Shown one piece after another: positions 9,634 to 31,748 of a DNA stretch of 64,000 bases. The notes beneath the pieces are model-generated. The model was not told where the DNA came from. It ran no database searches and worked only from the letters and a program-made list of their open reading frames with translations. Location of the stretch: positions 896,001 through 960,000 of the forward strand of contig OZ243974.1 of assembly GCA_965214775.1 (NCBI GenBank), written 5' to 3'. The position numbers and the translations under genes were made by a program. Origin of the DNA: Nitrosopumilus sp. Lineage in GTDB: Archaea > Thermoproteota > Nitrososphaeria > Nitrososphaerales > Nitrosopumilaceae. The stretch's first letter is position 1. Each line of letters opens with the position of its first letter.

Positions 9634-11187
9634 TCAGTGTTTTCTGAAAAGTCCCGAGACTGCCATGACAATTCCCGAGAGTGTCATTCCAGCTAGTCCA
9701 AGAACTTCGTTTGACTGGAACAAGAACGCGGATCCGACAAAGAGGGAAGATGCAAAGATGCTTCCGCTTATCAGAACCACCGGCCTTCTTTTTTTCATAA
9801 AAAATCGGGCCTCATCCATCAGTTTCTTCATTTCAGGTCCCGCTCTTAACGCAAGATCGACTGATTTTGAAAAATTATCAAACGATATTTTTAATTCCTG
9901 GACATATGCCCTTGCTATCAAATTTTCCTCTTGCAGGATGTTTCTCAGAACTTTGACAAATTTGAAGTCCACGTCGTGTGTCTTGTAAATTCCTTCAATG
10001 ATTGACGCCATTCTCATGTACAGTGCCAGGTTTTTTGGCAGGACAAAGGGAAACTTGCTCATCGTTTGGTTTGCCAGCTCCATCAGGCTCTGAATCTCCA
10101 TTTCGTCAGGCTTGCTTCCATGCATGGCACGGATGGAAAGTTCTATCCCTTTCTCAATAACTTCGCGGTTGTATCCCGGAGTAAGCATTCCAAGCTCGTT
10201 CATTGCATTGACAACCCTGGGAGGATTTCGCTCAACTAATGCAAGGTAAAGTCTAACAAGCTTGAACCTGGTCTCGTTGTTGATTCGTCCAACCATTCCA
10301 TAGTCATACAGGATTAGCTTTCCATCACCGGTAACTGAGATGTTTCCGGGATGCGGATCGGCATGAAATATGGAGTGTTTTAGAAGCATCGTAAAAAAGA
10401 CCTTGTGCACGTCAATGACTAGCTGTTCTCGATCAATTCCTGCCTGATCGAGCTCCTTTACGTTTGTGACCTTGATTCCAGGCAGGTATTCCATGGTAAG
10501 GACGTTTTTTGACGAAAAATCTCCATAGACTGACGGAACCACGACCTTGTCGGAGCTTTCCATGTCGGATTTTATTTGCCTAAGGTTTGATGATTCGTTT
10601 GCATAGTCCATTTCTTCATGAATTGTTTCGATAAACTGTGAGAGCATGGCTTTTGCAGAATAGCGCAGGTTGGGATCTACAAAACGCAGTGCCAGTGGAA
10701 GAATTTTTTTCAATACGTCCAAGTCTTCGGCGACTATCTTTTCAATTCCAGGTCTCTTTACCTTAACGACAATCTGTCGTCCGGAGATGGATCCCCTGTA
10801 AACCTGGCCCAGAGACGCGCCGGAAATCGAGTTTGGATCTATATTGTCAAACTTCTCACTGATGGGGCCAATCTCTTCTTCAATAATGGGCCTGACTTGT
10901 TCAAAAGGGGCCGGAGGAACGCTGTCTTGAAGTTTGGATAGTTCTTGCAGGTAAGGCTGTGGCAGAATGTCTGCTCTTGAGGACAGCCACTGGCCCAACT
11001 TGATGTAGACCGGGCCCAGTGAAATGAAGGTTGCAAGAACCTTTCTGGCGTTTTTTCTAAATCGCTCAGAGTCAATTTCGTTTTTTGACTGTTTGATCCA
11101 TGCCTTTCTGTCTTTTCTCAGAGACAGGATTGAAGGAAGGAGTTTTACCAGCACTTTGATGGCTCTGACCTTGGACAAGACAATCAC
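9634..11187 (-). CDS. AarF/ABC1/UbiB atypical kinase
   Basis: LGPVYIKLGQ, ASLGQVY, VKVKRP, FHADPHPGN, DYGMVG. Confidence 0.92.
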   Translation of the reverse strand: MIVLSKVRAIKVLVKLLPSILSLRKDRKAWIKQSKNEIDSERFRKNARKVLATFISLGPVYIKLGQWLSSRADILPQPYLQELSKLQDSVPPAPFEQVRPIIEEEIGPISEKFDNIDPNSISGASLGQVYRGSISGRQIVVKVKRPGIEKIVAEDLDVLKKILPLALRFVDPNLRYSAKAMLSQFIETIHEEMDYANESSNLRQIKSDMESSDKVVVPSVYGDFSSKNVLTMEYLPGIKVTNVKELDQAGIDREQLVIDVHKVFFTMLLKHSIFHADPHPGNISVTGDGKLILYDYGMVGRINNETRFKLVRLYLALVERNPPRVVNAMNELGMLTPGYNREVIEKGIELSIRAMHGSKPDEMEIQSLMELANQTMSKFPFVLPKNLALYMRMASIIEGIYKTHDVDFKFVKVLRNILQEENLIARAYVQELKISFDNFSKSVDLALRAGPEMKKLMDEARFFMKKRRPVVLISGSIFASSLFVGSAFLFQSNEVLGLAGMTLSGIVMAVSGLFRKH

Positions 11188-11564
11188 TCCAGATAATTTT
11201 TTAATTTCTTTGTAACTGCGTATCCAGCACAGCCTGCGATTAACGAGGCAAGCAGAATTGCAGGAATCGAGGATTTGCCTGATTTTTTCTTTAATATTTT
11301 TGCGACTTGTGTTCCGCCAAAGATGCCACAGGCCAGGCCAACCAGGAATTCAGGTGCGTCCTTTACAAGATGGCCCACAGGATCCACCCTAGGATCGATT
11401 TTGTCCGTATGAACTAGGAATTTATCATCATACTCCCTGATGTGTAGATTTCCATACCGATACTGCTTCCTGGCTCCGTTTTTTTGTCCAAGGAATGTTT
11501 CTTCAGCCCCGTCAAGCATGAATTCGCGCAATTCCTTTGGGACCTCAATTTCATCCCTTGGCAT
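11184..11564 (-). CDS. Hypothetical membrane protein
   Basis: ATG ORF with upstream TATA-like element, 4-bp overlap with the kinase gene, C-terminal hydrophobic helices. Confidence 0.75.
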   Translation of the reverse strand: MPRDEIEVPKELREFMLDGAEETFLGQKNGARKQYRYGNLHIREYDDKFLVHTDKIDPRVDPVGHLVKDAPEFLVGLACGIFGGTQVAKILKKKSGKSSIPAILLASLIAGCAGYAVTKKLKNYLE

Positions 11565-17472: not shown

Positions 17473-17558
17473 GATCAGAATAAAATAGTCCAGTATTTAA
17501 TATATATGATACATAGTGCTAACATAATGGACAATTTTATATAAAATTAGTTTTTTGT

Positions 17559-18497
17559 ATGCTTTATGGAGATACTTTGAGTGACAAAATGGACATTTTA
17601 GATATGAAAATTTTGAGCAGGTTGCTAAACAACTGCAGGGAGTCTGACAGGCAGATAGGCCTGGAACTGGGTGTCTCAGGGGGGGCAGTCCGCGCCAGAA
17701 TCAAAAAAATGCAGCAAAGCGGCATTATTGAAGACTTTTTCATCAAAGTCGAGCCTCCGGTTTTGGGATATGGAATTTTGTACTTTGTTGTGTCTGGAGA
17801 AGATATCAAAGAAATTTTAGAGCAGGTAAGCCTTGTCGGCGAACCGTTTGTTGTGGTCCCATGTGTTGGCGGAATTACGGTTTGCGGCATTGTGATCAGG
17901 GAGGATCTGGAGCAAAAAGTAGAGCTTGCATCAAAACTTATGAAGGATCTCAGGGTATTGACAATTTTTGAGGCCGACAGCAATAATGCCGGGTTTGATT
18001 CAAACCTTACAAAGACAGACCTTGAGATTTTGGGAGAACTGATTTCAGATCCCAGGCAAAAAATCGAAAAGATTGCAAAAAAAACCGGTTTGTCAACAAA
18101 GACAGTTGCAAGATGCATTGGCAAGCTTCGGGAAAACGACGGCATTCAATTTACATTGGTTTATGATCCCCAAAAAATCAAAGGTTTTATTCCGCATGTG
18201 ATCCTTGCATGGGTACAAGACGATCTCAAGGGCACGCTGGAAAACATGAACAAAGTGTTTTCTGACTCGTATCTACAAATTCCGTTTATTGCAAAAAATC
18301 AGATTGTCTTGTTTATGTACAGTGACAGTATCTTCAGGATGGACGAGGTCACTCAAAGGGTCAGAAACATCAAAAATGTAAAATCGACAGACTTGTTCAT
18401 ACCTAAAAAAATTTCATTTTATGACAAATGGCTGGACAGGGCAGTGGGTGATTTTAAGAAATCGCCAACGCTGCACCTGGCATATCAAACAAATTAA
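17559..18497 (+). CDS. Lrp/AsnC-family regulator with two HTH domains
   Basis: MDILDMKILSRL..CRES..IG..LGVS..AV..RIKKM, plus a second HTH (LTKTDLEIL..DPR). Confidence 0.85.
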   Translation: MLYGDTLSDKMDILDMKILSRLLNNCRESDRQIGLELGVSGGAVRARIKKMQQSGIIEDFFIKVEPPVLGYGILYFVVSGEDIKEILEQVSLVGEPFVVVPCVGGITVCGIVIREDLEQKVELASKLMKDLRVLTIFEADSNNAGFDSNLTKTDLEILGELISDPRQKIEKIAKKTGLSTKTVARCIGKLRENDGIQFTLVYDPQKIKGFIPHVILAWVQDDLKGTLENMNKVFSDSYLQIPFIAKNQIVLFMYSDSIFRMDEVTQRVRNIKNVKSTDLFIPKKISFYDKWLDRAVGDFKKSPTLHLAYQTN

Positions 18498-18522
18498 ATA
18501 ACAAGAATTTTGCACGGGATCA

Positions 18523-19038
18523 GTGAAAAAAACAAAGATCTATGACGGAAAAATTTTGGGATTAAGCGTGTATGACGGAAAAATCAAGGGAAGAAAGGTC
18601 AGGCGAGAGATAATAGAGCACAGAGGCGCATCGGCAATGCTTGCATTTGACGAAGATAAAAAACTGATTCTGGTCAGACAGGACAGATTTCCTCACGGGT
18701 GCGTTTTAGAGATTCCGGCAGGCACGCTGGAGAAAAACGAGGAGCCCGTAAAATGCGCATTCAGGGAACTAGAGGAAGAGACCGGATACAGGGCAAAAAA
18801 AATGACGCCGCTGATCACGTTTTACCCTTCAATTGGCTACAATTCAGAGATCATTCACTGCTTTTTAGCCTCAGGGGTGAAGAAAGGTGCCGGTTTGAGG
18901 CTTGACGAGGATGAAATTTTATCGGTAGAAAAGATGGATTTCAAAAAAGTGCTGGGAATGATCAAAACAGGAAAAATCCAGGATTCAAAAACGGTTTGTG
19001 CTGTTTTGGCATATGCATCAAAGAAGAGACTCTACTGA
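18523..19038 (+). CDS. NUDIX hydrolase (ADP-ribose pyrophosphatase-like)
   Basis: Nudix box GTLEKNEEPVKCAFRELEEETGY. Confidence 0.92.
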   Translation: MKKTKIYDGKILGLSVYDGKIKGRKVRREIIEHRGASAMLAFDEDKKLILVRQDRFPHGCVLEIPAGTLEKNEEPVKCAFRELEEETGYRAKKMTPLITFYPSIGYNSEIIHCFLASGVKKGAGLRLDEDEILSVEKMDFKKVLGMIKTGKIQDSKTVCAVLAYASKKRLY

Positions 19039-19044
19039 TTATTC

Positions 19045-19627
19045 GTAACCATATGTGTCTCAAAAACAAAATTCAGATGGTACCAAGATAAAAGGCAATG
19101 CAAACAGACAGATTAGCGCAAAAAAAAGGATATGTGTGAAATCAAAGGCGGAGCAGCAGTATGTCGGCCTGGACGTGCACAAGGAGTCCATCCAGGTCGC
19201 GGTGATGGACAAGGACGGCAAGGTCCTGGGGAATACAAAAATAAGCAACAGGAACAGCGAGATAAGAGAGATGTTTGCAAAGATTCCGGATAACACCAGG
19301 TGCGTCATGGAGTCCTCGTATGCTAAAGAAATAGATGGCCTTCAGTCAGTGCATAGTGGACATGCGTGTGAAATGAACGTCATCATCATTATTATTATTG
19401 TCATTACAGTTAGAACTTTAATCTGCGTTGATGTAGTTGAGGGAGATCCTCGTTTAGTAACTGCAGAACGGTTCTGACAAATGGATGAAGAATGGTACTG
19501 AGGGAGATCCTCGTATAGATAAGTGTCCGACCTTCATTTTGTGATTGTCAGGAAGAGACCCCCAGCCAAAGCCATACTTCACAACACCGTTACGCGTGGA
19601 ATCCTTATAAGCACGACACATAGATAC
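19045..19627 (+). mobile_element. Internally deleted IS110-family element, copy 1
   Basis: YVGLDVHKESIQVAVMD...CVMES (DEDD RuvC N-terminus), then a jump to the 3' end. Imperfect IR GTAACCATATGTGTC / GACACATAGATAC. Confidence 0.8.
19412..19541 (+). ncRNA. Putative IS110 bridge-RNA-like ncRNA, copy 1
   Basis: Two stem/internal-loop modules, each capped by the hairpin GAGGGAGATCCTC (19439, 19500), downstream of the IS110 ORF. Confidence 0.5.
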
Positions 19628-19980
19628 AACATCAGTCCTTTTTATACTGACAAGCCAACTTTTCTGGGCAGCATCTTATGATCAGATGCCCTTGCAGACA
19701 TGACTGAGCATCAGACATTTGTGATCAGTCATTGCAGGATTGGAATTTGCTGGGGTGATCCATTATCGGCATCTTGGTCAAAGAATTTCGATGGAAATCT
19801 TTTTTGATCTTGCCTGCTTGATGTAACACATGGACTCCAAATCTACGCCTGCACACAATATGGATCTTGCAAAAGCCATTGCCATGATTAAGGAGAAGGA
19901 CAAGGAGATCACCCTGCTGAAAAAGGAGAAGGACAAGCTTCAGGCAAGGCTTGCCATGTACGAGAGTCCCAACATGCCCA
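19624..19980 (+). mobile_element. Truncated left end of the IS66-family element
   Basis: Near-identical to 28463-28920 without the 28715 MITE. Encodes the transposase N-terminus MDSKSTPAHNMDLAKAIAMIKEKD and breaks off 7 bp before the serpin stop. Confidence 0.88.
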
Positions 19981-19987
19981 GCACAGA

Positions 19988-21250
19988 TCAGGTCTGGGGG
20001 CTGGGATCCGTAACCCTTCCCATGAACAGGATGGCGCCGCTCTCGTCATCCTGTATGATGAAGACGAACGGGCGGTCTGCGATAAAGGGCACCGGCGGCG
20101 GCGGTGCTGAAGTTGTTGTGACAACAACGGCAGTCACGGCCGCTGCCTCCGTCCCCTCCTCATTTATATCTACAAACGCCTTCTGTGCCGACTTGCTTAC
20201 GTACAGGTTTTCATCCGATACGTCTGCGATGCCCGAAAGATCGGCTTTCTCGGGATCAAACACGTCCGCCACTCCGAGCCTCGCCAAAGGATCTGTAAGA
20301 TCATAGTATGTCTCCATCCTGAACTTTGGCATCGACACCTCCACGTCCGTCTGCAGCATGTCTTTATTCCACTTCTGTATGAGCCCAGCAGAAAGCGTCT
20401 CCTGCAGCGGATCCATCCCGTCCCTGTCTGCCGGCAGTATTACCAGCATGGAGAGTCGATCACCCTTGTATGGAAGCCTGAGCATCTGCACGTCGTCCTG
20501 CTGCGTATAATCGAACATGCCCACCACGTTCATAAAGTCTGTCCTGACGCTCTGCGTGCCGTCCTTCCAGAACTCGGACTCGCGCGTGTTTTCCTCCGGA
20601 AACTGCGTCACCCACGTTCCCTTGAAGTATATAGCGTTTGTCAGGACAAGCGCGGTCAAACTATTTACATCCTCGGGCGTAAGTATCTTCTTTATCTTTT
20701 CGCGCGTCTTCTCAGACGCCCAGCTGTTTATCCTGTCCGTGCTGCCCTGCGAGTCTTTAAAGTCAACGCGCTCGATGTCGGCAAGGTATGTGCCGCGTAT
20801 GGTATTCACATACGAGTCATGCGGTGCAAGCCAGTCGGCAAGCCACATCGAGTTTGCCAGCTCCAGCGTGGCATATGGATCGTGTCTGGCAATAGAGGAC
20901 ATCGTGTGTGCAGTGGCGTTGTGGCGCGCCTGCTCGTCGGGTTCAAAGCCAAATGCCGCCTCTATCTGCCCTGCACTGTCGCCTCTTGCCCCCTCGTACA
21001 GCATGGAAAAGACCACGTATATGCTGGTAGGGGAGAAGAAGATGTTCTCGTCACTGTCTGCTGAGACCAGCTTATAAAAGTCGACTGCAAAGCCGTTGTT
21101 TGCAGACGCGATATCCTCTGGAATCGTAGCGGATCCTGGCTGTAGAGATGCAACTATGGAATGCGGTACCGTCGTTTCGGCGTACAAAAGGACGGATGCC
21201 GCAACCACAACGGCGGAGACTGCCGCTATGGCATAGAGGCGACTGTTCAC
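19988..21250 (-). CDS. Serpin (serine protease inhibitor) with N-terminal signal/anchor
   Basis: ENIFFSPTSI, NAIYFKGTW, MPKF, hinge/RCL EEGTEAAAVTAVVVTTTS, FIADRPFVFII..ILFMGRV. Confidence 0.95.
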   Translation of the reverse strand: MNSRLYAIAAVSAVVVAASVLLYAETTVPHSIVASLQPGSATIPEDIASANNGFAVDFYKLVSADSDENIFFSPTSIYVVFSMLYEGARGDSAGQIEAAFGFEPDEQARHNATAHTMSSIARHDPYATLELANSMWLADWLAPHDSYVNTIRGTYLADIERVDFKDSQGSTDRINSWASEKTREKIKKILTPEDVNSLTALVLTNAIYFKGTWVTQFPEENTRESEFWKDGTQSVRTDFMNVVGMFDYTQQDDVQMLRLPYKGDRLSMLVILPADRDGMDPLQETLSAGLIQKWNKDMLQTDVEVSMPKFRMETYYDLTDPLARLGVADVFDPEKADLSGIADVSDENLYVSKSAQKAFVDINEEGTEAAAVTAVVVTTTSAPPPPVPFIADRPFVFIIQDDESGAILFMGRVTDPSPQT

Positions 21251-24200
21251 GGAACGATCACCGCGTATGGCTCGCGATCATGGTTCTGCAAGTCCGATGC
21301 GGTCACCCAGAACACATACGTGCCTACTGCCGTGCCCGTCGTGTCAAGCGATATGGCTGCCGTGCCGTTGCCGTGATCCGTCACCGAAACGGAGCCTTCC
21401 GGCATGCTGTCCGGTATCATTCCTATTGTGATTGGGTCTCCTTCTGCATCAGAGGCACGTACTACAAGCGATAGTTGCTGTGATGTGACGGTCATCGGGC
21501 TGGATACAGCAGTACCGTTCTGCGAGAAGGCAAGCTCAAACTCCGGGCCGTCGTTCTCCTGTGCTGCTGTGTCACCTGTGCTCTGGCTGCCGCTTGTGGT
21601 CGTGCTCGACGCGGAGTATTGCGGACCGACCACCACTCCGCGTGGGTCGTCCATCCTGTTGCCGGACACAAAGACCGAGGCGGTGCCGGAGGATATGCTT
21701 ATGATGTTGTCGTCGTCCTTGTTTGCCACGTACAGCACGACGGCATCGTCCATGTCCATGCCGTACGGCTCGTCTATCAGCGATGTGATGGTAGTGATCA
21801 GCGATCCGCTTGTCGGGTTGATCTCGTTTACGCGCCCGGCATCATCGCCGCCCTGGTACAGGCTGGATCCGGTGCCGCCCATGGCTGCGCCGCACTCCAG
21901 TCCCGCGGCCCTGTACGTGTTGGGCGGGGACGAGCCGGTTCCAGATATCGCGCCCTGGTACGTGCCGTCAGAGGCCCGGTAGTAGAGTATCTTGTCAAGC
22001 GACCTGTCTGCTGCATACATCCGGCCGTCTGTGCAAAAGACCACGTCGTACGGGGACAGTAGCGCGGTGGCGCCCGAGCTTGCCGGGTTGCGCGATGCGT
22101 CGCCAAAGTATCCCAGCGACGAGCCGGACGACGAGAACCTCTCCACTCCCATGCTTGTGGCCACGTACAGCGTGTTGCCGTTCCACGTGAGGCCGTACGG
22201 GTATCCCGTAGTGGATGCCCACCCGGCGCTTGATCCGCTGATCGGGGCGCCTGTGGCGCCATTGTACTTGCGTATCTTGCTGTATGTGTTGTCTGATATA
22301 TACAGGTGGCCGTCAGGGCCAAAGGCCACGTCCCACGCCTTGCCAAGGCCTCCCGCCCTGCCCTCCACAAAGTCGCCGAGATACGTCCCGCTCTCCGAGA
22401 AGACCAATACCTCGCGGTCATCAGTATCTGCGACGTATATCGAATGGCCTGATGTGGGTGATGAACCCGAGTCGCTTATGGATATGTTGTCTATCATTGT
22501 TATCTCAGATGAGCTGGAGCTGCGCGCAGTTATGCGCACCTGCATCTCGGAGACCAGGTGTCCGGAGGACAGGTCGTATGACTCTGTATGCCACGTGCTG
22601 TCGTCGTCGCCGGAGGAGGCCTGCCAGTCAAACGCGGTGGTCCATGCAGAGCCGTCGTGCAGCTCCACCCTGAGGTACTCGCCGCCGTCAAGTGACGATG
22701 ATACGAACCTGTCAAGCGTCAGGTGTCCTGTCTGCCGCGACGACAGGTCTACCGGCGACAGCGTGATGGTACAAAGCGTGTCGCAGTTGCTCGAGTATGC
22801 GACGGTGTTGCCCGTCTGGCTGCCCGGCAGCGGCGTGGTGGGCGAGCGCGTGATCCAGTCCGAGTCGCCGCCCTGGGTCCAGCCGTCCAGTCCTGACTCA
22901 AAATCCTCTGATATCGTGGCGGGTCGCGACGGAGGCTGGACAGTCGAGCCGTCGGATGCGGCACTTATTGTTATGTCGTCAAGCTGCACGTCCTCGCTTG
23001 AGGAGCTCTGCTGCGTGACCAGCCTGATCTTAAAGTCGTCTGCCTCAAGATATGACGCAAGGTCGTACGATTCCTGGTGCCACATGTTGTCGTCGCCCCC
23101 GAGGTTGTGCGACCAGTGGTATATGGTGCTCCATGTCGAGCCGTCGTATGCCTCCACCTTGAGGTACTCGTCACGGTCAAGCCCATAGTCTATGAACCGC
23201 CAGAACCCGAGGGTGGCAGAGTCATAGTCGGTAAGATCAAGGGAGGTGGTAAGCGTAAGCGTGCACATGTTGTCGCAGTTGTCAGAGTGCAGAACCTTGT
23301 TCTCACTGTCACGGCCGGGCAGCGTCGGCGCGCTGTGCGATTGGGACGTGGAGATGGTCCAGTCGCCGTCGCCCGTCTCGGTCCAGTGCGTGGTAAGATC
23401 AGAGGATTCAAAGTCGTCCAAGAACAGGACGGTCTCTGTTGCTGCGGGAGGCTCCGGCGTCGCCGTATCCGCTGGGGCGGCATACTCCATCTCGAGGCTC
23501 CAGTCGTTGAGGATCCCGATGTCTCCGCCTGCATAGTCACCCACCGAGAGAGTCCAGTTGCCTGCAATGGCAGAGCCCGTCATGGATCGGAGTCCTGTGT
23601 GCGAGGACGAGTAGTAGGTGCTGGATATGTTGTCTGTGCTGCCGCCTGTCCTGCCGTGCAGTGTGGCCTGCGTTCCGTCAGGCGAGTTGAGCTCCACCCT
23701 GAGGTCCCCGATGTACGTGTGGGTTATGCTGACTGACACCGTCAGGGAACTCGAGGTTCCGTTTACCGGAACGTATATGGTGCTTGCCGCATCCTGGCTG
23801 CCCGTGTTGTCTGGTATGGTGAGGCCCGACTCTGCCGTGGAGCGGTACGTGGCGCTTGCCGGACACGAGGCGGTACCGCTTGCGCCAGACGCCCCGCCGG
23901 AGCACGAGCTTGGAACGTACCCCACAAACATGCGCACGTCGTTGTAATTGAAAAGAAATTGCCTAAAGTCATAAATCAGCGACTCCGCCTGGTTTCTCTG
24001 GCGGCTTGCCTCGTGCGCGGCTTCCTCGTCAACGCCGTCAGCAGAAAGTGTGGCAGATCGGATGGAGATCGGCGTGGCAAGCTCCATCATCCGGCTGCCG
24101 CTTGGAGGTATTGCTACCGTGTACGTGGTGCCGGATGTGGTGACGAGCTTCAGGTCGACTCCCTCCATGTTGACGGAGCCTACGTATATGGCAGATACCG

Positions 24201-26604
24201 TATATCCCGGGCCTGAGAACGTCTGAGAATAGTCTGCGTGGGCAAAGCCCGAGGTGACCTCAAGCGTGTCCCAGTCCCTTATGTTATCAGAGCTTGGAGA
24301 GACGTTGGCAGAGCCCGGAGGAAGCGACTCGGCCCGGAGCGTCACGGTGGCAGGCGTGCCGGTTTGCTGGCCGTCGTGCGGCGTTATCTGAAACGTGTCC
24401 GTGCCGGTAAAGTTGCTGTTCGGCGTGTACACCGCGCGCGACGTGGTCTTTGTTATGAACTCGTCCGTCGTGATTACTCCCTTTGTAGGATCCCTTGATA
24501 CGTGAAACGACACCGCATCGCCGTCCGCATCAGACGCAGACAGCCTCACCACCTTCTCCATGCCGGGGCTGACTATGTGCTCTGAGGGGCTGGCGACCGG
24601 CTGGGTGTTTGAGGAGGAAGGCAGGAAGCTGAGCTGACGCGTGCTTGCAAGTGCAAAGTTCTGGACGGGCTTGTTCAGACTGTCCAGCCCGGAGCCCGTG
24701 ACGGTTATTGTATATGTTCCCGTCCTGCCTGGCGTGAACACCGCAAACTCGTTTGTCTGGTGCGATGATTCTGCGCGTATCGTGCTTCCGTCGGGTGCGG
24801 CTATCGTAAAGTCAAGGTTTGCAATGTTGGCTGGAAATATTCCAGCTGTCTGGGCTGCGAGGCTTCCGCGGTCTACTTGCTCTGCTATGCCGCCGTGTGG
24901 CTGCACCAGCCATGTAAGTATCACCTTTACGGGATCCGAGGTATCGGAGACGACGAACCTGTACTGCCTGGATGTTGTGCCGGTGTCAAGATAATCGGAT
25001 ATCACATAGTTTGAGGAGGTGTGGACGTAGCCGAGTGACTTGGATACGTCCAGTATGCCAAATCCCACATTGTTGAGGATTCCAAGCGATGCGGCACTGT
25101 TTGCCTCGTTATGATCTCTTGGCTGCATTAAGTGTGAGCAGTTGCCAGTTCCGTTGCTCTGCTCGTACTGCGACGAGTTGCAGGGAATTGGCCCCTGCCA
25201 GTTTGCCCCCAAAAGGAGGGCGGCCTTGACCTCTGCAGGGGTCAGCTCTGGTCTTGCCTCCAGCAGGATTGCAGATGCGGCACTCACTTGCGGTGCGGCA
25301 TAGCTTGTCCCGCTTGCCATAACAGTCTGATTGCCTGTGTGATATCTTGCTATAACGTTTATGTCTGTTGCCGGAGCTACGATCTCTGGCTTTAGCCTGT
25401 TGTCTGGTGCAGGCCCTCTGCTTGAGTGGTTATACATTGTTATGGTGTTAGGAGTACGATCGTCTATTCCTCCTACGGTGATCGTGTTATGAGTGCATCC
25501 TGGAGCTCTAAGAGAATGATAGTTAGCTTCTGATGCGTTGATAACTCTAATAGTTCCTTCGTTTCCTGCTCCAGATACTACAACCATGCCCTTGTCTACT
25601 GCCTCGTTGGTGATCAAGGCAAATGTGTTGTGGCGGTCATTGGAACATGGCAGCCCTGCGCTAATATTTGCAACATCTGCACCACGGGTAAGTGACCAGT
25701 CAAGTGCATGAGCCACGTATGAATGAAAGGAATTTGCGATGTGTTGAGTCTGATTACCAAATGAATACTGGGCATCAAGCAGGCTTACACCCGGTGCTAT
25801 GCCATTATGTGCCGGCATCCCGGAGGCAGCAAGCACGCCTGCTACCTGTGTTCCATGTGTGGAACTTACACTCTCATGAGTTATGTCAGATGGCTGTTGC
25901 CCCCTACAAGCATCAGAAACACCACAATACGCCCTGTCTACTATCTTGCTATTTAGCGACGTATGATTCAGTCCGGTATCGACTACTGCCACGGTGACTC
26001 CGGTTCCGTCAAACACTCTGCCTGCTGCAAGTCTCAAGTCAAGTGGCGTTGCATTGATGGTCTCCCTTGCGGTATCTACGGCAAGCGTGACTTTTTGCTC
26101 ACCATCGCCAATCTTATACACGTCATCATCTAGCGCAAAGCCCGGTATGTCGGCTACGGGGATCGACGCGGTGACAAACGAGAGTGACTCTGCCGCAACG
26201 ATGTCTCGTGCGCCAACAGCCTTGAGCCTCTTTACTACTGCCTCTTTGTTTTCGCTGGCGGTCTCATCGCCATCACGGCCGTCCCCGTCGTCCCTGCTAA
26301 CCACCATTACGACGTTATAGTAGCGCTCCCCGTCATACACGCCAAAGTCGCCTTCCTGCGGATCCTCTAGGATCAGATCCTGAATCCTTGAGTAAAAACC
26401 TTCATCGAACTTGTATTGGTGGCCATCGACGTTTGCAACCGGCCCAGGCGCCGTGGCATTTCCGGGCAGGATGTCGCCAGGTATGCTGCCGGAATGCGCC
26501 GAGTCCGCATCGTCTTGCGCGGTCTGAGACATTGATACTGCCGGAGGAACAAGGAGAACCGCTGAGAATAATGCCAAGAGAAGAATCACCGTTCTGATAA
26601 TCAC
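21247..26604 (-). CDS. Secreted multidomain S8 subtilase (PPC, Ig/cadherin-like, P-proprotein, two MAM-like, NHL-like propeller)
   Basis: Signal peptide; triad VAVVDTG / STHGTQVAG / SGTSYAAP, oxyanion GAGNEG; P-domain HTYIGDL..GNWTLSV.D..GD.G.L..WSL; IYVADT..DVAFGPDG repeats. Confidence 0.92.
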   Translation of the reverse strand: MIIRTVILLLALFSAVLLVPPAVSMSQTAQDDADSAHSGSIPGDILPGNATAPGPVANVDGHQYKFDEGFYSRIQDLILEDPQEGDFGVYDGERYYNVVMVVSRDDGDGRDGDETASENKEAVVKRLKAVGARDIVAAESLSFVTASIPVADIPGFALDDDVYKIGDGEQKVTLAVDTARETINATPLDLRLAAGRVFDGTGVTVAVVDTGLNHTSLNSKIVDRAYCGVSDACRGQQPSDITHESVSSTHGTQVAGVLAASGMPAHNGIAPGVSLLDAQYSFGNQTQHIANSFHSYVAHALDWSLTRGADVANISAGLPCSNDRHNTFALITNEAVDKGMVVVSGAGNEGTIRVINASEANYHSLRAPGCTHNTITVGGIDDRTPNTITMYNHSSRGPAPDNRLKPEIVAPATDINVIARYHTGNQTVMASGTSYAAPQVSAASAILLEARPELTPAEVKAALLLGANWQGPIPCNSSQYEQSNGTGNCSHLMQPRDHNEANSAASLGILNNVGFGILDVSKSLGYVHTSSNYVISDYLDTGTTSRQYRFVVSDTSDPVKVILTWLVQPHGGIAEQVDRGSLAAQTAGIFPANIANLDFTIAAPDGSTIRAESSHQTNEFAVFTPGRTGTYTITVTGSGLDSLNKPVQNFALASTRQLSFLPSSSNTQPVASPSEHIVSPGMEKVVRLSASDADGDAVSFHVSRDPTKGVITTDEFITKTTSRAVYTPNSNFTGTDTFQITPHDGQQTGTPATVTLRAESLPPGSANVSPSSDNIRDWDTLEVTSGFAHADYSQTFSGPGYTVSAIYVGSVNMEGVDLKLVTTSGTTYTVAIPPSGSRMMELATPISIRSATLSADGVDEEAAHEASRQRNQAESLIYDFRQFLFNYNDVRMFVGYVPSSCSGGASGASGTASCPASATYRSTAESGLTIPDNTGSQDAASTIYVPVNGTSSSLTVSVSITHTYIGDLRVELNSPDGTQATLHGRTGGSTDNISSTYYSSSHTGLRSMTGSAIAGNWTLSVGDYAGGDIGILNDWSLEMEYAAPADTATPEPPAATETVLFLDDFESSDLTTHWTETGDGDWTISTSQSHSAPTLPGRDSENKVLHSDNCDNMCTLTLTTSLDLTDYDSATLGFWRFIDYGLDRDEYLKVEAYDGSTWSTIYHWSHNLGGDDNMWHQESYDLASYLEADDFKIRLVTQQSSSSEDVQLDDITISAASDGSTVQPPSRPATISEDFESGLDGWTQGGDSDWITRSPTTPLPGSQTGNTVAYSSNCDTLCTITLSPVDLSSRQTGHLTLDRFVSSSLDGGEYLRVELHDGSAWTTAFDWQASSGDDDSTWHTESYDLSSGHLVSEMQVRITARSSSSSEITMIDNISISDSGSSPTSGHSIYVADTDDREVLVFSESGTYLGDFVEGRAGGLGKAWDVAFGPDGHLYISDNTYSKIRKYNGATGAPISGSSAGWASTTGYPYGLTWNGNTLYVATSMGVERFSSSGSSLGYFGDASRNPASSGATALLSPYDVVFCTDGRMYAADRSLDKILYYRASDGTYQGAISGTGSSPPNTYRAAGLECGAAMGGTGSSLYQGGDDAGRVNEINPTSGSLITTITSLIDEPYGMDMDDAVVLYVANKDDDNIISISSGTASVFVSGNRMDDPRGVVVGPQYSASSTTTSGSQSTGDTAAQENDGPEFELAFSQNGTAVSSPMTVTSQQLSLVVRASDAEGDPITIGMIPDSMPEGSVSVTDHGNGTAAISLDTTGTAVGTYVFWVTASDLQNHDREPYAVIVP

Positions 26605-26663
26605 AATATTCTTGTGGGATCTTTAATTCATTTAATACTTACGATCCGGATTAACGATTGTTT

Positions 26664-26747
26664 CATATGAAAATTAGTTCCGCCCCTCATTAGTATCCTT
26701 CTCCATCCATTTTGGGTTGCTTTTCCTGATCGCATCTGCGGCCTTCC
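26664..26747 (-). mobile_element. Inverted 3'-end fragment of an IS481-like element
   Basis: Reverse complement matches about 28370-28450 (GCGATCAGGAAAAGCAACCCAA.ATGGATGGAG..AATTTTCATAT). Confidence 0.8.
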
Positions 26748-26780
26748 AAGCCATCCCCGGGGTATTGTAGAGGATAATTG

Positions 26781-27385
26781 GTAACCATATGTGTCTCAAA
26801 AACAAAATTCAGATGGTACCAAGATAAATTGCAATGCAAACAAACAGATCAGCGCAAAAAAGAGGATACGTGTGAAATCAAAGGCGGTGCAACAGCAGCA
26901 ACAACAGTATGTCGGCCTGAATGTGCACAAGAAGTCCATCCAGGTTGCAGTGATGAACAAGAACCGGAGGATCCTGAGGAACACAAAGATAAGCAACAAG
27001 GAAAGCGAGATAAAGAAGATGTTTGCAAAGAAGAGGGGAAGGTCCAAGACCGCAGTGGCCGCAGCATCCAAGCTGCTGCGTATATCATACTGGATGCTAA
27101 AGAAGGAGATGACCTTCAAGCAGTGCATAGGAGATATGTATGTGAAATGAACGTCATCATTATTACAGTTAGAACTTTAATCTGCGTTGATGTAGTTGAG
27201 GGAGATCCTCGTATAGTAACTGCAGAACGGTTCTTACAAATGGATGAAGAATGCTACTGAGGGAGATCCTCGTATAGATAAGTGTCCGACCTTCATTTTG
27301 GAATTGCCAGGAAAGACCCCCAGCCAAAGCCATGCCTCACAACACTGTTACGCGTGGAATCCTTATAAACACGACACATAGATAC
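26781..27385 (+). mobile_element. Internally deleted IS110-family element, copy 2
   Basis: YVGLNVHKKSIQVAV fused in frame to the IS110 C-terminus KRGRSKTAVAAASKLLRISYWML. Same ends as copy 1 but a different deletion. Confidence 0.82.
27171..27300 (+). ncRNA. Putative IS110 bridge-RNA-like ncRNA, copy 2
   Basis: 130 nt, nearly identical to 19412-19541. GAGGGAGATCCTC at 27198 and 27259. Confidence 0.5.
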
Positions 27386-27395
27386 AACATTCTAT

Positions 27396-28450
27396 TGTAC
27401 GAAAATTAGGTCGCACTAATTTGAGGAGGATTGCAAAGGATTACTTTAGGCTTTACCGATCAAGAAAACCGATGGTTGTAAGGCTCGAGGCAAAGCAGAT
27501 CAGATACGCAGTGACGCAATGTGCAGGGGGACGAAAGCCCTCGGAGGTGGCCCCGGAGATAGGCGTCACGACAAGGCACGTCCAGCGGATGTATGCCCGG
27601 TTCAGGAAGACAGGCGACACGCACCACGTGCCGCTCAAGCCGGGAAGGAAAAAGAGCGCCCCGGTTCCCGACGGGGACGTGCGCGCAGTCCTGGAGGAGT
27701 ACAAACACAGTGCAGCAGGGGTGGTTCATACGGCCAAGAGGCTGCGAAGGCAACTCGATATAAGCTACTACGAGGTATACAGGATAATGAAAGAAAACGG
27801 GCTGGTGACGCCATCGGCTGCAAAATCAATGCCCAGAAAATACGTCCGCTTTGAGCGCAAATACTCCAATGCCATGTGGCACGTGGACTGGCATACCATG
27901 AAGGATCCGCGCTTTGCAGGGCTCAATTTGGTCACGTTCCTAGACGACTCGTCCAGGTGCGTGACTGGTGCGGGCCTGTTCAGGGAGGCCACCTCAGAAA
28001 ACGTCGTGGCGGTCCTGCGGCAGGCCGTGGCCCAGTTCGGCGCGCCTGCCACCATACTCTCAGACAACGGCAAGTGCTTTGTCGGGGCGCGCTCGGATCC
28101 GAAGAAGAAGAAGAGTCCGCCCAAGGGCGGATGGAGGCCCACTGCCTTTGAGGAGGAGCTGCTCAACTGCGAAATCGGGCTGATAAACTCCAGGCCGTAT
28201 CACCCGCAGACCAATGGCAAACTGGAGAGATTCCACAGGAGCATCGAGGAGGAGATATGGAACCACAAGAGTCTGTCTGCATACATCGACTACTATAACG
28301 AGGACAGGCTGCACTGGTCGCTTGACATCGACAACTACGAGACGCCGCTGCGGGCATTCTCCGACAGGGAGGCCACAGAAGCGATCAGGAAAAGCAACCC
28401 AAGATGGATGGAGGAGGACATTGGTGATGGTGCGACATAATTTTCATATA
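27396..28450 (+). mobile_element. IS481-family element with intact transposase (CDS about 27472-28440)
   Basis: TIR TGTACGAAAATTAGGTCGCAC / GTGCGACATAATTTTCATATA; DDE WHVDWH, ILSDNG, PQTNGKLERF. Confidence 0.9.
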
Positions 28451-28714
28451 ATACACACATAGATACAACATCAGGTCCTTTTTATACTGACAAGCCAACT
28501 TTTCTGGGCAGCATCTTATGATCAGATGCCCTTGCAGACATGACTGAGCATCAGACATTTGTGACCAGTCATTGCAGGATTGGAATTTGCTGGGGTGATC
28601 CATTATCGGCATCTTGGTCAAAGAATTTCGATGGAAATCTTTTTTGATCTTGCCTGTCTGATGTAACACATGGACTCCAAATCTACGCCTGCACACAATA
28701 TGGATCTTGCAAAA

Positions 28715-28807
28715 GTATGTGGTCACGTCCCCTTACTGGCTAGGCGTGGAAATCATAATTGTGTATACTAATTCGTGCCTGATTGGTGGGGATAGGTGAC
28801 CACATAC
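28715..28807. mobile_element. MITE family J (93 bp, IS66-type)
   Basis: TIR GTATGTGGTCAC...GTGACCACATAC with 8-bp TSD TTGCAAAA. The empty site is visible at 19861-19880. Confidence 0.93.
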
Positions 28808-29828
28808 TTGCAAAAGCCATTGCCATGATTAAGGAGAAGGACAAGGAGATCACCCTGCTGAAAAAGGAGAAGGACAAGCTTCAGGCAAGGCTTGCCATGT
28901 ACGAGAGTCCCAACATGCCCATGTCCACGCCGTCATTATACAACAATGCCAGAAGAAAGTTCAGGGAGAAAAGGGGCGAGGATCCCGGCAGCAGTCCCGG
29001 CGATGCTGCTCGGGGCAAGAAACGCGGCCCTCCGTGCGGACACCATGGTACATCGCACGGCAACCGGCCATCCATGACATTAAGGTACGATCTTGGCTCC
29101 AAAATATGCCCAAAGTGCAACATCCAGCTACGGATGCTCAAACCGATCCACAAGCTTGTAAACGACCTGGATGACTCCATGCGCATGCTCACTGCCAATA
29201 CCATCATCCAAAACGCGATGTGTCCACAGTGCAATACCGTGCATGTCGCAGCGACCCCGTTTCTAAGCGGCACGTCACTTGGGCCCGTCTCGCTTTCTCT
29301 AATCATGATGTTCTTTGAGAAGGGAAACACAAACGAGGACATTGCAGAGTACTTTCAGTATATGTTTGGATTCAAGATGGTCCCAAATGCCGTGACTGCC
29401 GCCCGGCACGCAGTGGCAGAGGCGATTCAACAAAACATGATACAACGCATACAATCATTCATTGCGGGCAGGCCGTGGATACAGGTGGACGAGACCGGAT
29501 TTAAGCGCGGCGACGGACACATGGGATACGTCTGGGTGCTCAACTGTGAGGGGGCGTGCTTTGTGGTCTTTGCAGATTCCCGGTCCTCCGAGGTACTGCG
29601 CACGCACTTTGGATGGCTGGATCCCAAGACTCCCATAGTCGTAGACGGGCTGGCCCAGTACAAGCTGTTCTTTGTGACAATCCAGAGGTGCTGGAGGCAC
29701 CTTCTGGCATATGCAGAAAAGCTTGCAGTAAAGATGCCCGAAGGCGATAACGAGAAAAGGTATGACTTGCTGCTGGAATTCTACAGGAAGATAGATAAAA
29801 TCAAGACGCTTGCGCCGCTTACATACAT

Positions 29829-29951
29829 CAGTACTTCCTAGGTGTGCTTTTGCAGACCCGGCACGGCATAGCCGCTAATTTTGTTTACGCGTAAGGTCTT
29901 CTACAAATTACGTGATTACCGTGCCTGTAAAAATACACCTAGGAAGTACTG
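29829..29951. mobile_element. MITE family I (123 bp, ISH3-like ends)
   Basis: TIR CAGTACTTCCTAGGTGT...ACACCTAGGAAGTACTG with 4-bp TSD ACAT. Confidence 0.92.
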
Positions 29952-30767
29952 ACATGGAGCTTTCAAGGGAGGCATACAAAATAATCATTACATATGAGGA
30001 CGATCACGTGCGTACACACCTGCTAAACGCCATATCTGACATGTTTACGTGTCTAGCGTATCTAGGAATGCCGCCGCACAACAACGATACGGAGCGGTGC
30101 ATACGCAACGGGATCATACCACAACGCAATGCGCGCCACAAGATCGTAACTGACGGTGGAAGAAAGACGGCTTCTGCACTGCTGACGTTCTCGATGACAT
30201 GTCGCAAGCAGAATATACATCCTGCAGGTGGACTCTTGGAATACCTGCGGAATCCTGACTGGGATGTCTTTGCAGAAGCAGGCGATGATGATGATATGCG
30301 CCTGCTGTCCTCGCTTGTCAATACGGACGGTACAAGATACGGCGTCTTTGAGTGTCCCGGGCCGCCGTCGGTGTGGCGGCCTGTAGTCGCCGATGAGGAC
30401 GCAGGCAGCAGAGGAGGAGCGGTACGGCGGGACCGGACGGCCGTCGTACCAGTAGCAGCTCCCATAACAACATGATCCGTCTGGCGCCTACGGGACGGCG
30501 TAACCCGTAGCTTCATGTCAAAGAATCCGACTGTGTAGACAAGTCTGCCAATTGACAGCGCCTTGCAAGTGTAACAATTTCTGACTGCATGGCAAGTGCC
30601 GTATGCCAATCTGTTGTATGCACGGCGTCAGTCAGTCAGTCTTGCATGTACAAAGGATGTGTCAGTAACAGTGTATCTAGTCTGTCACAACAGATGATGC
30701 GAAATGATCAAAAAGTTCTTGGAAAAAAGTTGGCTTGTCAGTATAAAAAGGACCTGATGTTGTACGA

Positions 30768-31748
30768 TTATTCGTTGTAGATGGGCTTTACAAGATCTGC
30801 CACATCGGCCCATGACTGGATTACTTTTTCAAACAAATAGACCAAATCAAGGAAATCCATCGGAATTTCCTTTTTCTTGTCCAGGCTTGCACGCAGCGAA
30901 CTGAGTTTGCCTTCCAGTTCCTTATGGGACGAAATTGCTTCGATTGCCAGTAACCTGTCAGGCCCTGTAAAGGCATCGATGGATTTTTCAGCCAAGATGT
31001 CAAAATTCCTCACAACGTCAAAAATTTTCTTTGTGTGCTCCTTTGAAAGTGATGAACTGTAAATCAGGTCGGACAGCTCAACTATGGAATCGCCTGCATT
31101 TTCCAACAGGTTTGCAGCAACCCTGTAATCCAGAATGTCAATGTTTTCCAGATTAAAGGCAGTTGCCAGCCTTCTGTCTACAAGGGTACTTCGGATTAAT
31201 CTGACCAGCAAAAAGTACTGCCGGTTAACTTCCACATCGCGATTTGGAATGGTTTGCAGGTTGGATTTGTCATTTGATGTCAGGCCGTTTGTCGCATCGT
31301 CATACATTCCCAGAGCAATCGAGCTCATTCTTTTGAGAATTTTTTGCGGATTTAGCGTCGTTGCATCCAAAAGAAACTGCATGTTAATGTGACGGGCGTC
31401 CTCTTCAATTATTTCCATTCCAACAAGTCGCCTCATGGAATTGCGTATCTGCTCTCGATCTTGGCCAGGAATTATGGACTTTGAGTTGATTTGAATGATG
31501 TCATATCCCAAAAGATATGCACCGGTAATGTCTGCAACGATATTCTCCTCTTTTGGCAGGGGATATGAAATAACCAATTCCTTGGTTCTGCGGGTTTCTT
31601 TGTTTGCAGAAATGGAAATGCTGTCCTGGCCGGTTTCAAGTTCTACCTGACTGCTTTTATCCAAGTTGTTTGCATCAACCCATTCTTTTGGAAGGGAGAC
31701 TAGAATGCTGCTTCCGATTCTTTGCAGGCGTCTAATGAATTTAGTCAA
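30768..31748 (-). CDS. phoU: Phosphate uptake regulator (AbrB-PhoU fusion)
   Basis: RRLQRIGSSILVSLPKEW AbrB N-terminus, AYLLGYD, RDVEVNRQYFL, LENAGD. Confidence 0.85.
   Translation of the reverse strand: MTKFIRRLQRIGSSILVSLPKEWVDANNLDKSSQVELETGQDSISISANKETRRTKELVISYPLPKEENIVADITGAYLLGYDIIQINSKSIIPGQDREQIRNSMRRLVGMEIIEEDARHINMQFLLDATTLNPQKILKRMSSIALGMYDDATNGLTSNDKSNLQTIPNRDVEVNRQYFLLVRLIRSTLVDRRLATAFNLENIDILDYRVAANLLENAGDSIVELSDLIYSSSLSKEHTKKIFDVVRNFDILAEKSIDAFTGPDRLLAIEAISSHKELEGKLSSLRASLDKKKEIPMDFLDLVYLFEKVIQSWADVADLVKPIYNE

Follow-up and report, generated by a model that had tools for sequence, protein, structure and literature searches.

How did a serpin gene and a subtilase gene, bordered by insertion sequences, come to lie between a NUDIX hydrolase gene and a PhoU-domain regulator gene in an archaeal chromosome, and which elements moved them? 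The DNA analysed (hereafter the window) is a stretch of 64,000 nucleotides of Nitrosopumilus sp. (assembly GCA_965214775.1, contig OZ243974.1, positions 896,001-960,000 of the forward strand). The insert measures 11,721 bp (19045-30765) and is flanked on each side by GATTATTC. Its borders are as follows:

18523-19038, plus strand, NUDIX hydrolase gene, left flank (Pfam PF00293, E 7e-18)
19037-19044, left 8-bp target site duplication GATTATTC
30766-30773, right 8-bp target site duplication GATTATTC
30768-31748, minus strand, PhoU-domain regulator gene, right flank (Pfam PF01895 and PF04014)

The string common to both sides is of 10 nt (GATTATTCGT) and not of 8, as GT begins the IS tip as well as the right flank. 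The exact 8-bp duplication around the insert that the earlier note had described is thus present, and it is of the IS66 type. The NUDIX stop codon TGA (19036-19038) overlaps the left 8-mer, and the PhoU stop codon, TAA on the minus strand (30768-30770), is included in the right one; since each copy of the 8-mer contains one stop codon, both genes retain their native ends. The same note had pointed to the adjacency of the two genes in relatives as informative. In all 11 congeneric loci (L002-L012) the genes are convergent and adjacent, with abutting stops and a single copy of the site, and the encoded proteins display 78-82% (NUDIX) and 81-85% (PhoU) amino acid identity with those of the window. 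The 8-mer of the empty site is exactly GATTATTC in two of these 11 congeners, AATTATTC in five and another variant in four. The adjacency with a single site copy was also found in a more distant MAG (G031). Across the genome, 92 pairs of facing IS66 or IS1111-MITE ends, 0.3 to 60 kb apart, were tested; 9 of them, including the NUDIX/PhoU locus, have matching 8-mers, for 0.0014 expected by chance. The duplication at this locus and the empty site in relatives are both shown.

The IS66-family sequences of the insert are found at its two extremities:

19045-19047, plus strand, tip (G, TA) of the left inverted repeat of IS66-A, severed from the remainder by a MITE
19625-19980, plus strand, IS66-A, IS66-family element truncated to its left part (positions 2-357)
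28464-30765, plus strand, IS66-B, full-length IS66-family element
28716-28806, MITE of 91 bp in IS66-B, duplication CTTGCAAAAG
29829-29951, second MITE in IS66-B, duplication ACAT

IS66-A retains the first 49 codons of the transposase gene; the boundary of its tip is ambiguous by 2 nt owing to the TA core. IS66-B displays perfect terminal inverted repeats of 40 bp (the right outer end matches 28464-28503), and the reading frame of its transposase gene is interrupted only by the two MITE insertions, the second of which is also represented by the joint 29825>29953 in read contigs. The domain DDE_Tnp_IS66 (PF03050) was detected at 28783-29841 (E 4e-15) and in an intact 540-aa copy, L047 (E 2e-19). 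Canonical IS66 elements have the accessory genes tnpA and tnpB, which the ISBst12-like group lacks. A 2,127-bp IS66 copy of this genome has a single long ORF (540 aa) and no accessory tnpA/tnpB, and by its gene content the element fits the single-ORF group, not canonical IS66. The terminal inverted repeats of IS66 begin with GTAA in ISfinder descriptions; here they begin with GTAC, and the intact copies of the genome end in GTACAAC[A/T]TC. Identical 8-bp flanks surround 6 of these 12 intact copies; the rule that IS66 yields 8-bp duplications, on which the earlier note had relied, holds in this genome as it does at this locus.

IS66-A and IS66-B are in direct orientation, are 99-100% identical and bracket the passenger genes with correctly oriented outer ends, the outer left tip being inferred through the MITE. 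An IS-bounded, composite-like architecture, as earlier proposed, is borne out. A 115-bp variant is 100% identical only between the two arms (the next match in the genome is of 85.7% over 91 nt), and GATAATTG, which borders IS66-B on its inner side, has its partner flank at no IS66 end of the genome. From these two observations, the IS66 subtype is restricted to this locus within the genome, as expected if it came once together with the cargo. The search for a donor of this subtype in G031 identified none, the best match being of 86% over positions 2-304.

Each IS66 left end is occupied by a non-autonomous element of the IS1111 type:

19048-19624, plus strand, IS1111-type non-autonomous element copy 1 (Pfam PF01548, DEDD transposase remnant)
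26781-27390, plus strand, G(TA) tip of IS66-B and IS1111-type non-autonomous element copy 2 (610 bp)

These elements bear on the proposal of the earlier note that the outer ends (GTAACC and GTACAA) come from different elements and that a hybrid composite, with an IS110-type left end and an IS66 right end, acted in one transposition. GTAACC does come straight after the left 8-mer. However, IS110/IS1111 recombinases and IS66 DDE transposases use unrelated ends, and an IS1111-type element is found at the same position in 8 IS66-type ends genome-wide, with unrelated left flanks. Copy 1 (588 bp as matched, 19045-19632) is 100% identical to three other copies of the genome, which indicates a recent secondary insertion, and 99.7-99.8% identical to two further copies. 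The same layout recurs in an independent case of 828 bp, where an IS66-type MITE and an IS1111 MITE lie within an 8-bp duplication abutting GTAACC. The hybrid mechanism is contradicted by these data and we regard it as hardly credible. Among the 14 IS1111-type right ends of the genome, 8 precede TACAAC (7 with the pattern TACAACNTC and the copy interrupted by an IS481-like element here). Given this arrangement and that of the 828-bp case, the leftmost G(TA) is assigned to the IS66 tip, and GTAACC to the IS1111-type MITE behind it. Judged by their sequences, both outer ends of the insert are IS66-family ends (GTACAAC...), and the IS1111-type MITE breaks the left end of the transposon rather than forming it.

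The repeated unit of IS110 remnant and IS66 left end that had been described around the cargo is confirmed only in part: the IS66 left parts are 99-100% identical, whereas the IS110-type parts are 81% identical, and a 1,065-bp IS481-like element and the 91-bp MITE interrupt the second copy. The difference between these values shows two independent, site-specific insertions of IS1111-type MITEs in the same target, and not the duplication of one unit. The closest other copy to copy 2 is 89.7% identical; a donor of copy 2 was sought in G031, where the best matches (81-90%) identified none. The IS481-like elements are:

26653-26780, minus strand, second IS481-like element (X2), terminal fragment, and 33 unassigned nt ending in GATAATTG
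27391-28455, plus strand, IS481-like element (X) of 1,065 bp (rve integrase ORF 27421-28440, Pfam PF00665)

X is bordered by the 16-bp duplication CACATAGATACAACAT (27375-27390 and 28456-28471). A copy 100% identical to it is present elsewhere in the genome, and other copies have duplications of 15-17 bp. The segment 26659-26747 of X2 is 94% identical to other copies.

The passenger genes, announced earlier as a protease-serpin pair, were confirmed as such by Pfam, which detected a serpin and a Peptidase_S8 with P-domain:

19988-21250, minus strand, serpin gene, 420 aa (Pfam PF00079 full length, E 3e-120)
21247-26604, minus strand, secreted multidomain S8 subtilase gene, 1785 aa (Pfam PF00082, E 1e-39)
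26605-26652, minus strand, promoter-bearing stretch upstream of the protease gene (alignment of paralogous loci)

The translated serpin begins with a hydrophobic anchor or signal. It contains an alanine-rich hinge that agrees with the consensus of inhibitory serpins, and it is a predicted inhibitor. The subtilase comprises a signal peptide, the S8 domain, the P-domain and Ig/cadherin-like, MAM-like and NHL-like regions, and its translation includes D-, H- and S-containing motifs that are presumably the S8 catalytic motifs. The stretch upstream of the protease gene is conserved among paralogous loci as far as ...CGAT, which sets the right edge of the native-type cargo (19981-26652). The serpin is 88% identical in amino acids to L021 and the protease gene 93-97% identical in nucleotides to L022 over 21443-24742, both in G031, whereas the core proteins of G031 and of this genome are only 72.5% (NUDIX) and 64.7% (PhoU) identical. 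As the cargo is far closer to G031 than the core proteins are, these identities show that it was exchanged horizontally. The serpin family is multi-copy, with six matches in this genome, and any serpin was found in 5 of 18 congeners. The neighbours of L021 map partly to 2384-2396 kb of this genome (G000), where neither scar nor remnant of an ancestral cargo site was detected.

Between the unique flanks and the cargo lie stretches of 588 bp and 1,065 bp that recur exactly elsewhere in the genome, and a wrong join across the IS1111-MITE, IS66 or IS481-like repeats could have brought the cargo to what is truly a plain IS66 site. The locus was compared with Logan contigs, which are short-read contigs (k=31), so that its long-range order rests on the assembly. 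The left junction (17500-19072) and the right junction (30737/8 onward) were recovered without differences in two studies, the IS66-A/serpin (19866-21697) and protease/X2 (24098-26685) junctions without differences in X5 only, and parts of the locus at low depth in X6 and X7. Against a wrong join, the genome is one contig of 2.83 Mb despite hundreds of IS copies, the X5 contig, from an independent study, joins IS66-A with its private differences to the serpin, the 16-bp duplication of X links MITE copy 2 to IS66-B, and the A/B subtype is found nowhere else in the genome. Moreover, the depths of cargo and flanks are equal (about 188-238 versus 178-233 in X3 and about 15-18 versus 12-13 in X5). 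We consider an assembly artefact quite improbable.

On balance, the insert is probably an IS66 compound transposon that is now immobilised, and we infer that the cargo moved with its ends in one transposition event. The left arm would be a truncated IS66 (left inverted repeat and 357 bp), the right arm a full sister copy, and the passenger an operon of the serpin and subtilase genes that has a promoter of its own. The IS66 transposase, supplied by IS66-B or in trans, would have acted on the right end and on the outermost of the left ends. The whole block would then have entered the 8 bp holding the abutting NUDIX and PhoU stops, duplicating them and leaving both genes intact. Later, IS1111-type non-autonomous elements would have entered the IS66 left ends after their first bases (G-TA|CAAC...), probably guided by an RNA from their own non-coding region. 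Copy 1 entered the outer end recently; copy 2 may already have been in the inner end before the move, in which case it would have compelled the use of the outer end. The IS481-like element and the two MITEs would also have landed later in IS66-B. With both left ends broken and the transposase gene interrupted, the unit is now fossilised.

Alternatively, a plain IS66 of the A/B subtype, resident at NUDIX/PhoU, made the duplication and the cargo entered later by homologous recombination, either from a circle carrying IS66(1-357) and the cargo (Campbell-type) or from linear DNA that paired through IS66 homology at one side and was illegitimately joined at position 357. Capture of this kind yields exactly the structure observed, in which the cargo lies between direct repeats of IS66 positions 1-357, and the microhomology of only 2 nt (CA) at the 19980/19981 junction is compatible with an illegitimate join. 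Since 6 of the 12 IS66 copies have no matching flanks, homologous recombination between IS66 copies is common here, which makes capture into a resident copy plausible. Matching flanks alone are no proof that the enclosed DNA moved with its ends: one pair of IS66-type ends, 37.8 kb apart and also bordered by matching 8-mers, was considered as a candidate second compound transposon but rejected, as the unique segments inside it consist of core genes that keep synteny with the right flank in G012, G017 and G034, and as its flanks fall within a repeated element. Capture nevertheless requires that a private subtype, of which the genome has no other copy, was both resident and present on the incoming DNA; it also requires a pre-formed truncated IS66 beside the serpin, and at least as many steps as compound transposition. 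We judge it less probable than compound transposition, but the most probable of the alternatives.

Several searches concern the past mobility of the proposed compound transposon. A second copy of the unit or of the A/serpin junction was found neither elsewhere in the genome nor, with serpin patterns, in 185,579 species genomes; this counts against the compound transposon, and the further serpin/subtilase loci with the same flanking unit that the earlier note had envisaged were not recovered. In JGI metagenome contigs, which likewise gave no second copy, six loci contain relatives of the serpin, none of them close (the best is 53% over a part). The empty-site or circular joints that had also been suggested are absent from the 12 joints listed for four runs, in short-read contigs that drop rare forms. 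The compound transposon model also does not account for the truncation of IS66-A at position 357, 8 bp past the serpin stop.

A compound transposon of the Tn5/Tn10 type carries its passenger genes between two copies of the same IS, moves by its outermost ends and is flanked, as a unit, by a duplication of the length typical of the IS. As read here, the locus shares these three features and would be a new example of this already known kind. It differs in that the IS is of the IS66 family in an archaeon, that the left arm is only a 357-bp stump supplying an end, that insertions of a different mobile element later broke both left ends and that no second copy or moving intermediate was seen. A composite transposon was already proposed in an ammonia-oxidising archaeon, for a soil thaumarchaeal fosmid on which amoAB lies between identical IS elements (PMC3379541). 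As far as the accessible text of that report goes, that case rests on the identical flanking copies, whereas a target duplication and an empty site are observed here, with a different cargo. In sponge-associated ammonia-oxidising archaea, serpin and S08A subtilase genes are co-localised (Moeller et al. 2019, PMC6790972; Haber et al. 2021, PMC7848895), as are the serpin and the secreted S8 protease of the multi-copy family found here. The accessible parts of these reports describe the presence and enrichment of such genes and of transposases, and discuss the pairs as host-interaction or nutrition genes; in those parts we found no IS-bounded unit with target duplication, nor a demonstration of how the pairs multiply and spread. 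The locus provides a dated, stepwise record in this respect, with an empty site, an IS66-type duplication, private sister IS copies and a cargo whose similarity to a distant genome far exceeds that of the core genes. In combination, these features make IS66-mediated cassette delivery directly testable.

The target choice of the IS1111-type elements was analysed from sequence comparisons. One candidate was discarded: GATAATTG (26773-80) resembles GATTATTC at 6 of 8 positions, which could have made the 8-mer a part of an IS110-type element, but the left flanks of 24 copies are unconserved. Intact IS66 ends read GTACAAC and occupied ends ..AGA-TA-CAAC; the intact targets read G-TA-CAAC and G-TA-ACAGG. 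The IS1111 group is characterized by a long non-coding region downstream of the transposase and by subterminal inverted repeats of 11-13 bp (PMC11187229). Copy 1 has a non-coding region of about 250 nt between the transposase stop (about 19377) and the right end, with two predicted stem-loops, and a subterminal repeat (TATGTGTC/GACACATA) of 8 bp, shorter than in that group. The full-length copy L046 matches PF01548 (E 4e-24) and PF02371 (Transposase_20, E 6e-19), of which only a remnant is present at the locus. In 15 IS1111-type copies, three variants of the putative guide were found to covary with three targets. A scan of 18500-31500 with Rfam (E<=1) detected no bridge or seek RNA family, the only match being a spurious miRNA family on a MITE hairpin. 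We tentatively propose, as a possibility short of even probability, that the IS1111-type elements are RNA-guided, that the guide of the full-length copies is aimed at the tip of another MITE and that the non-autonomous derivatives were re-programmed to the first bases of IS66 left ends. If so, a mobile element would specifically disable other mobile elements, and here an IS1111-type element would have arrested an IS66 compound transposon after the latter had carried a cassette of serpin and subtilase genes between distantly related Nitrosopumilaceae. The elements share with the IS1111 group the DEDD transposase, the downstream non-coding region, the subterminal inverted repeats, the orientation-specific targeting of the ends of other transposable elements and a guide-like segment covarying with the target. 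They differ by the archaeal host, by the target (the first 3 bp of IS66-type ends) and by the non-autonomous state of the locus copies, whose predicted guide is not that of the full-length copies. MITEPpu9 of ISPpu9 is likewise a non-autonomous IS110-family derivative, for which a transposase acting in trans was proposed; in the accessible part of that report it has a bacterial host, REP targets and an sRNA gene, whereas the elements described here keep a putative guide-bearing non-coding region and target IS66 ends (PMC12288879). The locus is a natural archaeal example of guide-target covariation of the IS1111 type, and also of a transposable element whose insertions put the ends of another out of action.

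The 8-mer GATTATTC is present twice, at 19037-19044 and 30766-30773, on both sides of an 11,721-bp insert located between a NUDIX gene and a PhoU gene. The features of this locus are the following:

18523-19038: NUDIX ORF (PF00293), stop TGA at 19036-19038
directly after the left 8-mer: G-TA, tip of IS66-A (the left, truncated IS66)
19045-19632 as matched: IS110-type remnant, copy 1, 588 bp
ending at 19980: left part of IS66-A
19981-26652: cargo
19988-21250, minus strand: serpin
21247-26604, minus strand: S8 subtilase, 1785 aa
upstream of the subtilase gene: 48-bp stretch, conserved among paralogues in the alignment
26653-26780: X2, terminal piece (95 bp) of another IS481-like element, followed by 33 unassigned nt that end in GATAATTG
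ending at 27390: G-TA and second IS110-type remnant, copy 2
27391-28455: X, complete IS481-like element of 1,065 bp, rve ORF, 16-bp duplication
28464-30765: IS66-B, full IS66, perfect 40-bp terminal inverted repeats
28716-28806: 91-bp MITE inside IS66-B, 10-bp duplication, TIR TATGTGGTCAC
29829-29951: 123-bp MITE inside IS66-B, 4-bp duplication, TIR CAGTACTTCCTAGGTG
30768-31748, minus strand: PhoU-domain ORF (PF01895 and PF04014), stop TAA at 30768-30770

The 91-bp and 123-bp elements are small MITEs of two families, both with many copies in the genome; the 123-bp MITE gives a spurious Rfam miRNA match. The element X (rve integrase) has the ends TCTATTG...ATAATACA and makes target duplications of unusual length (15-17 bp). 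Its copies in the genome of this organism (G000) are found at 492807, 67817, 1226537, 1232190 and 1349531, and its insertion point at the locus is exactly the junction of the IS1111-type MITE and IS66. The G+C content of the cargo (0.50-0.63) exceeds that of the flanks (0.38-0.47) and of the genome (0.471). Since a paralogous serpin-protease locus of G000 has a similarly high G+C content (0.58-0.60), composition by itself is no sign of a foreign origin.

As the earlier note had described, the 8-bp duplication is exact, and in silico deletion of 19045-30773 restores ...CTACTGATTATTCGTTG..., where the NUDIX and PhoU stops abut. The PhoU protein was used as query against 31 related genomes and the best 11 congeneric loci were inspected. 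All 11 display the adjacency supposed by that note, with convergent NUDIX and PhoU genes and a single copy of the site (exact GATTATTC in two, AATTATTC in five, a shorter or altered form in four). The adjacency is likewise present in G031, a more distant Nitrosopumilaceae MAG. A genome-wide scan of 92 pairs of facing IS ends, 0.3-60 kb apart, detected nine with matching 8-bp flanks for 0.0014 expected by chance. The locus is among these nine, and the duplication around the insert is real.

In the 2.83-Mb genome, which is a single IS-rich contig, copies of the IS66 family end in GTACAAC[A/T]TCAGG. Identical 8-bp flanks were observed genome-wide for six of the 12 intact copies, in agreement with the 8-bp duplications previously attributed to IS66. 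The right outer end of the insert is an IS66 end of this type. The GTAACC... after the left 8-mer is the constant left end of the IS110-type element, and the left flanks of 24 copies of this element are mutually unrelated. At the right end of the IS110-type element, ...CACATAGA, the next bases are TACAAC.. for 8 of 14 copies (seven with the pattern TACAACNTC, plus the locus copy interrupted by X), which corresponds to the IS66 left end minus its first G. Genome-wide, 60 GTACAAC[A/T]TCAG tips are intact and 8 are occupied. The junctions G-TA-ACC... and ...AGA-TA-CAAC are compatible with insertion at a TA core where no target base is lost, so that the G and one TA are part of IS66. This assignment is confirmed by an independent case: an IS66-type MITE carries an IS110-type element in its tip, and the 8-bp duplication TGCAAGCT abuts GTAACC. 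From their sequences, both outer ends of the insert can be assigned to IS66. The two ends had been taken to come from different elements; because the left G-TA is an IS66 tip occupied by an IS110-type element, the difference between GTAACC and GTACAA is a secondary state.

The earlier note also regarded the IS110 remnant and the IS66 left end as one unit, duplicated around the cargo. This does not hold, because copies 1 and 2 share only 81% identity, against 99-100% for the IS66 parts next to them; the two units are two independent insertions at one target. For copy 1 there are three other copies with 100% identity and two with 99.7-99.8%, and the nearest other relative of copy 2 reaches 89.7%.

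IS66-A and IS66-B share a distinct variant of IS66 positions ~250-357, found only in these two among the six copies with that left-end type. A diagnostic stretch of 115 bp is 100% identical between A and B only, the next best match in the genome being 85.7% over 91 nt. The partner of the inner flank of IS66-B (GATAATTG) is absent from all IS66 ends of the genome, and the A/B subtype was not found in G031 (best match 86% over 2-304). The transposase frame of IS66-B is open save for the two MITE insertions. The IS66-A stump is cut at position 357, 8 bp beyond the serpin stop.

From the 8-bp duplication it follows that an IS66 transposase joined a left and a right end of IS66 to the NUDIX/PhoU site. 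We moderately favour compound transposition of the whole [IS66 stump - cargo - IS66] unit, because a single arrival predicts a private IS66 subtype present only at the locus and a partner flank absent from the genome, as observed. The MITE in the left end of IS66-B, if already there, would have forced the use of the outer end. Insertion of a plain IS66, followed by acquisition of the cargo through homologous recombination with DNA carrying a sister stump, is less likely; two observations speak for it, the loss of matching flanks in 6 of the 12 intact IS66 copies and a pair of IS66-type ends, 37.8 kb apart, that share an 8-mer. As this pair encloses core genes, co-transposition is not proved by matching flanks alone. 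Both routes leave the cut at position 357 unaccounted for. One end of the 37.8-kb pair (G000:C1:1428905-1466736) belongs to an IS66 copy and the other to an IS66-type MITE, and their outer 8-bp flanks are identical, CCTAATTC. The pair sits in a repeated element, the unique DNA between the ends belongs to the core genome and shows synteny with the right flank in relatives, and the arrangement is probably the product of rearrangements. Near IS copies, synteny with relatives breaks down, and G000 measures 2.83 Mb for 1.2-2.2 Mb in congeners; recombination between IS copies appears to have reshuffled this genome. A misassembly of the locus is unlikely, since short-read contigs of two studies, taken together, support each unique junction and give the cargo the same depth as the flanks. 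Neither the empty site nor the circular junction suggested by the earlier note occurs among the 12 joints listed for the short-read contigs.

Serpin matches number six in G000 and were detected in 5 of 18 congeners. The closest relatives found for the cargo are two loci of G031 (3.2 Mb), L021 and L022. The serpin shares 88% aa identity with that of L021, where the protease gene is reduced to its two end fragments. The protease is 93-97% identical in nucleotides to that of L022 over 21443-24742 (81% aa overall), where it is paired with a serpin of a different type. For comparison, the NUDIX and PhoU proteins of G031 and G000 are 72.5% and 64.7% identical, and these sequence comparisons identify the cargo as horizontally exchanged. 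Homology to both loci begins at 19979, the IS66-A/cargo junction, and no IS66 lies beyond it at either. The cargo can thus be described as a mosaic of cassette types moving between lineages; the donor is neither L021 nor L022. Further serpin-subtilase loci (G000:C1:561962-568679 and ~10090-11217) display 72% nucleotide identity to the cargo. The mosaicism of such loci suggests recombination among cassettes.

The locus is real, clearly resolved and of kinds already known. Compound transposons are textbook structures, and amoAB of a soil thaumarchaeote has been proposed to lie in one (PMC3379541). For sponge-associated ammonia oxidisers, published work describes serpin genes close to S08A genes and an enrichment of transposases (PMC6790972, PMC7848895). 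The insertion of IS1111-type elements into the ends of other transposons and the choice of targets by an RNA guide have also been published (PMC11187229 among the sources), as has an IS110-family MITE (PMC12288879). A literature search of limited scope found neither an IS66-bounded serpin-protease unit nor an element of the IS1111 type directed to IS66 tips.

The guide-target covariation of the IS1111-type elements is a more interesting side-finding than the locus itself. Full-length IS110-type copies encode DEDD_Tnp_IS110 and Transposase_20, with a non-coding region downstream of the transposase gene and a subterminal inverted repeat of 8 bp, the same layout as in IS1111-type elements (downstream non-coding region and subterminal inverted repeats; PMC11187229). 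Copies 1 and 2 retain both ends and this region (19395-19560 and 27160-27330, respectively, for the part considered here). The region has no Rfam match and is predicted to form two stem-loops (-44.8 kcal/mol, z -1.9). In a 15-copy alignment, covariation is seen between the DNA immediately right of the insertion point and an arm of 9 nt in the first stem-loop. The variant TTGATGTAG occurs with the target TA|CAACATCAG of the IS66 tips, and TTGATGTTG, present in one copy, still matches the IS66-tip target better. The variant TTAACCTAG, carried by the five full-length copies, occurs with TA|A(T/C)AGGTTAG, the tip of a MITE of ~112 bp whose intact ends read GTAACAGG; this association is seen in three of the five, the remaining two being self-insertions. 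Finally, TTGACCTAG occurs with TA|TAGGTC. The predicted guide thus differs between non-autonomous and full-length copies, with three variants and three targets overall, which is the pattern expected if the candidate RNA acts as a guide.

At G000:C1:1166531-1167285 and 2397363-2398115, a full IS1111-type MITE is followed by a partial copy starting at position ~414, as if by self-insertion or self-recombination. A full-length IS1111-type copy (L046, G000:C1:1533379-1535918) is interrupted by an IS with DDE_Tnp_4 and HTH_Tnp_4.
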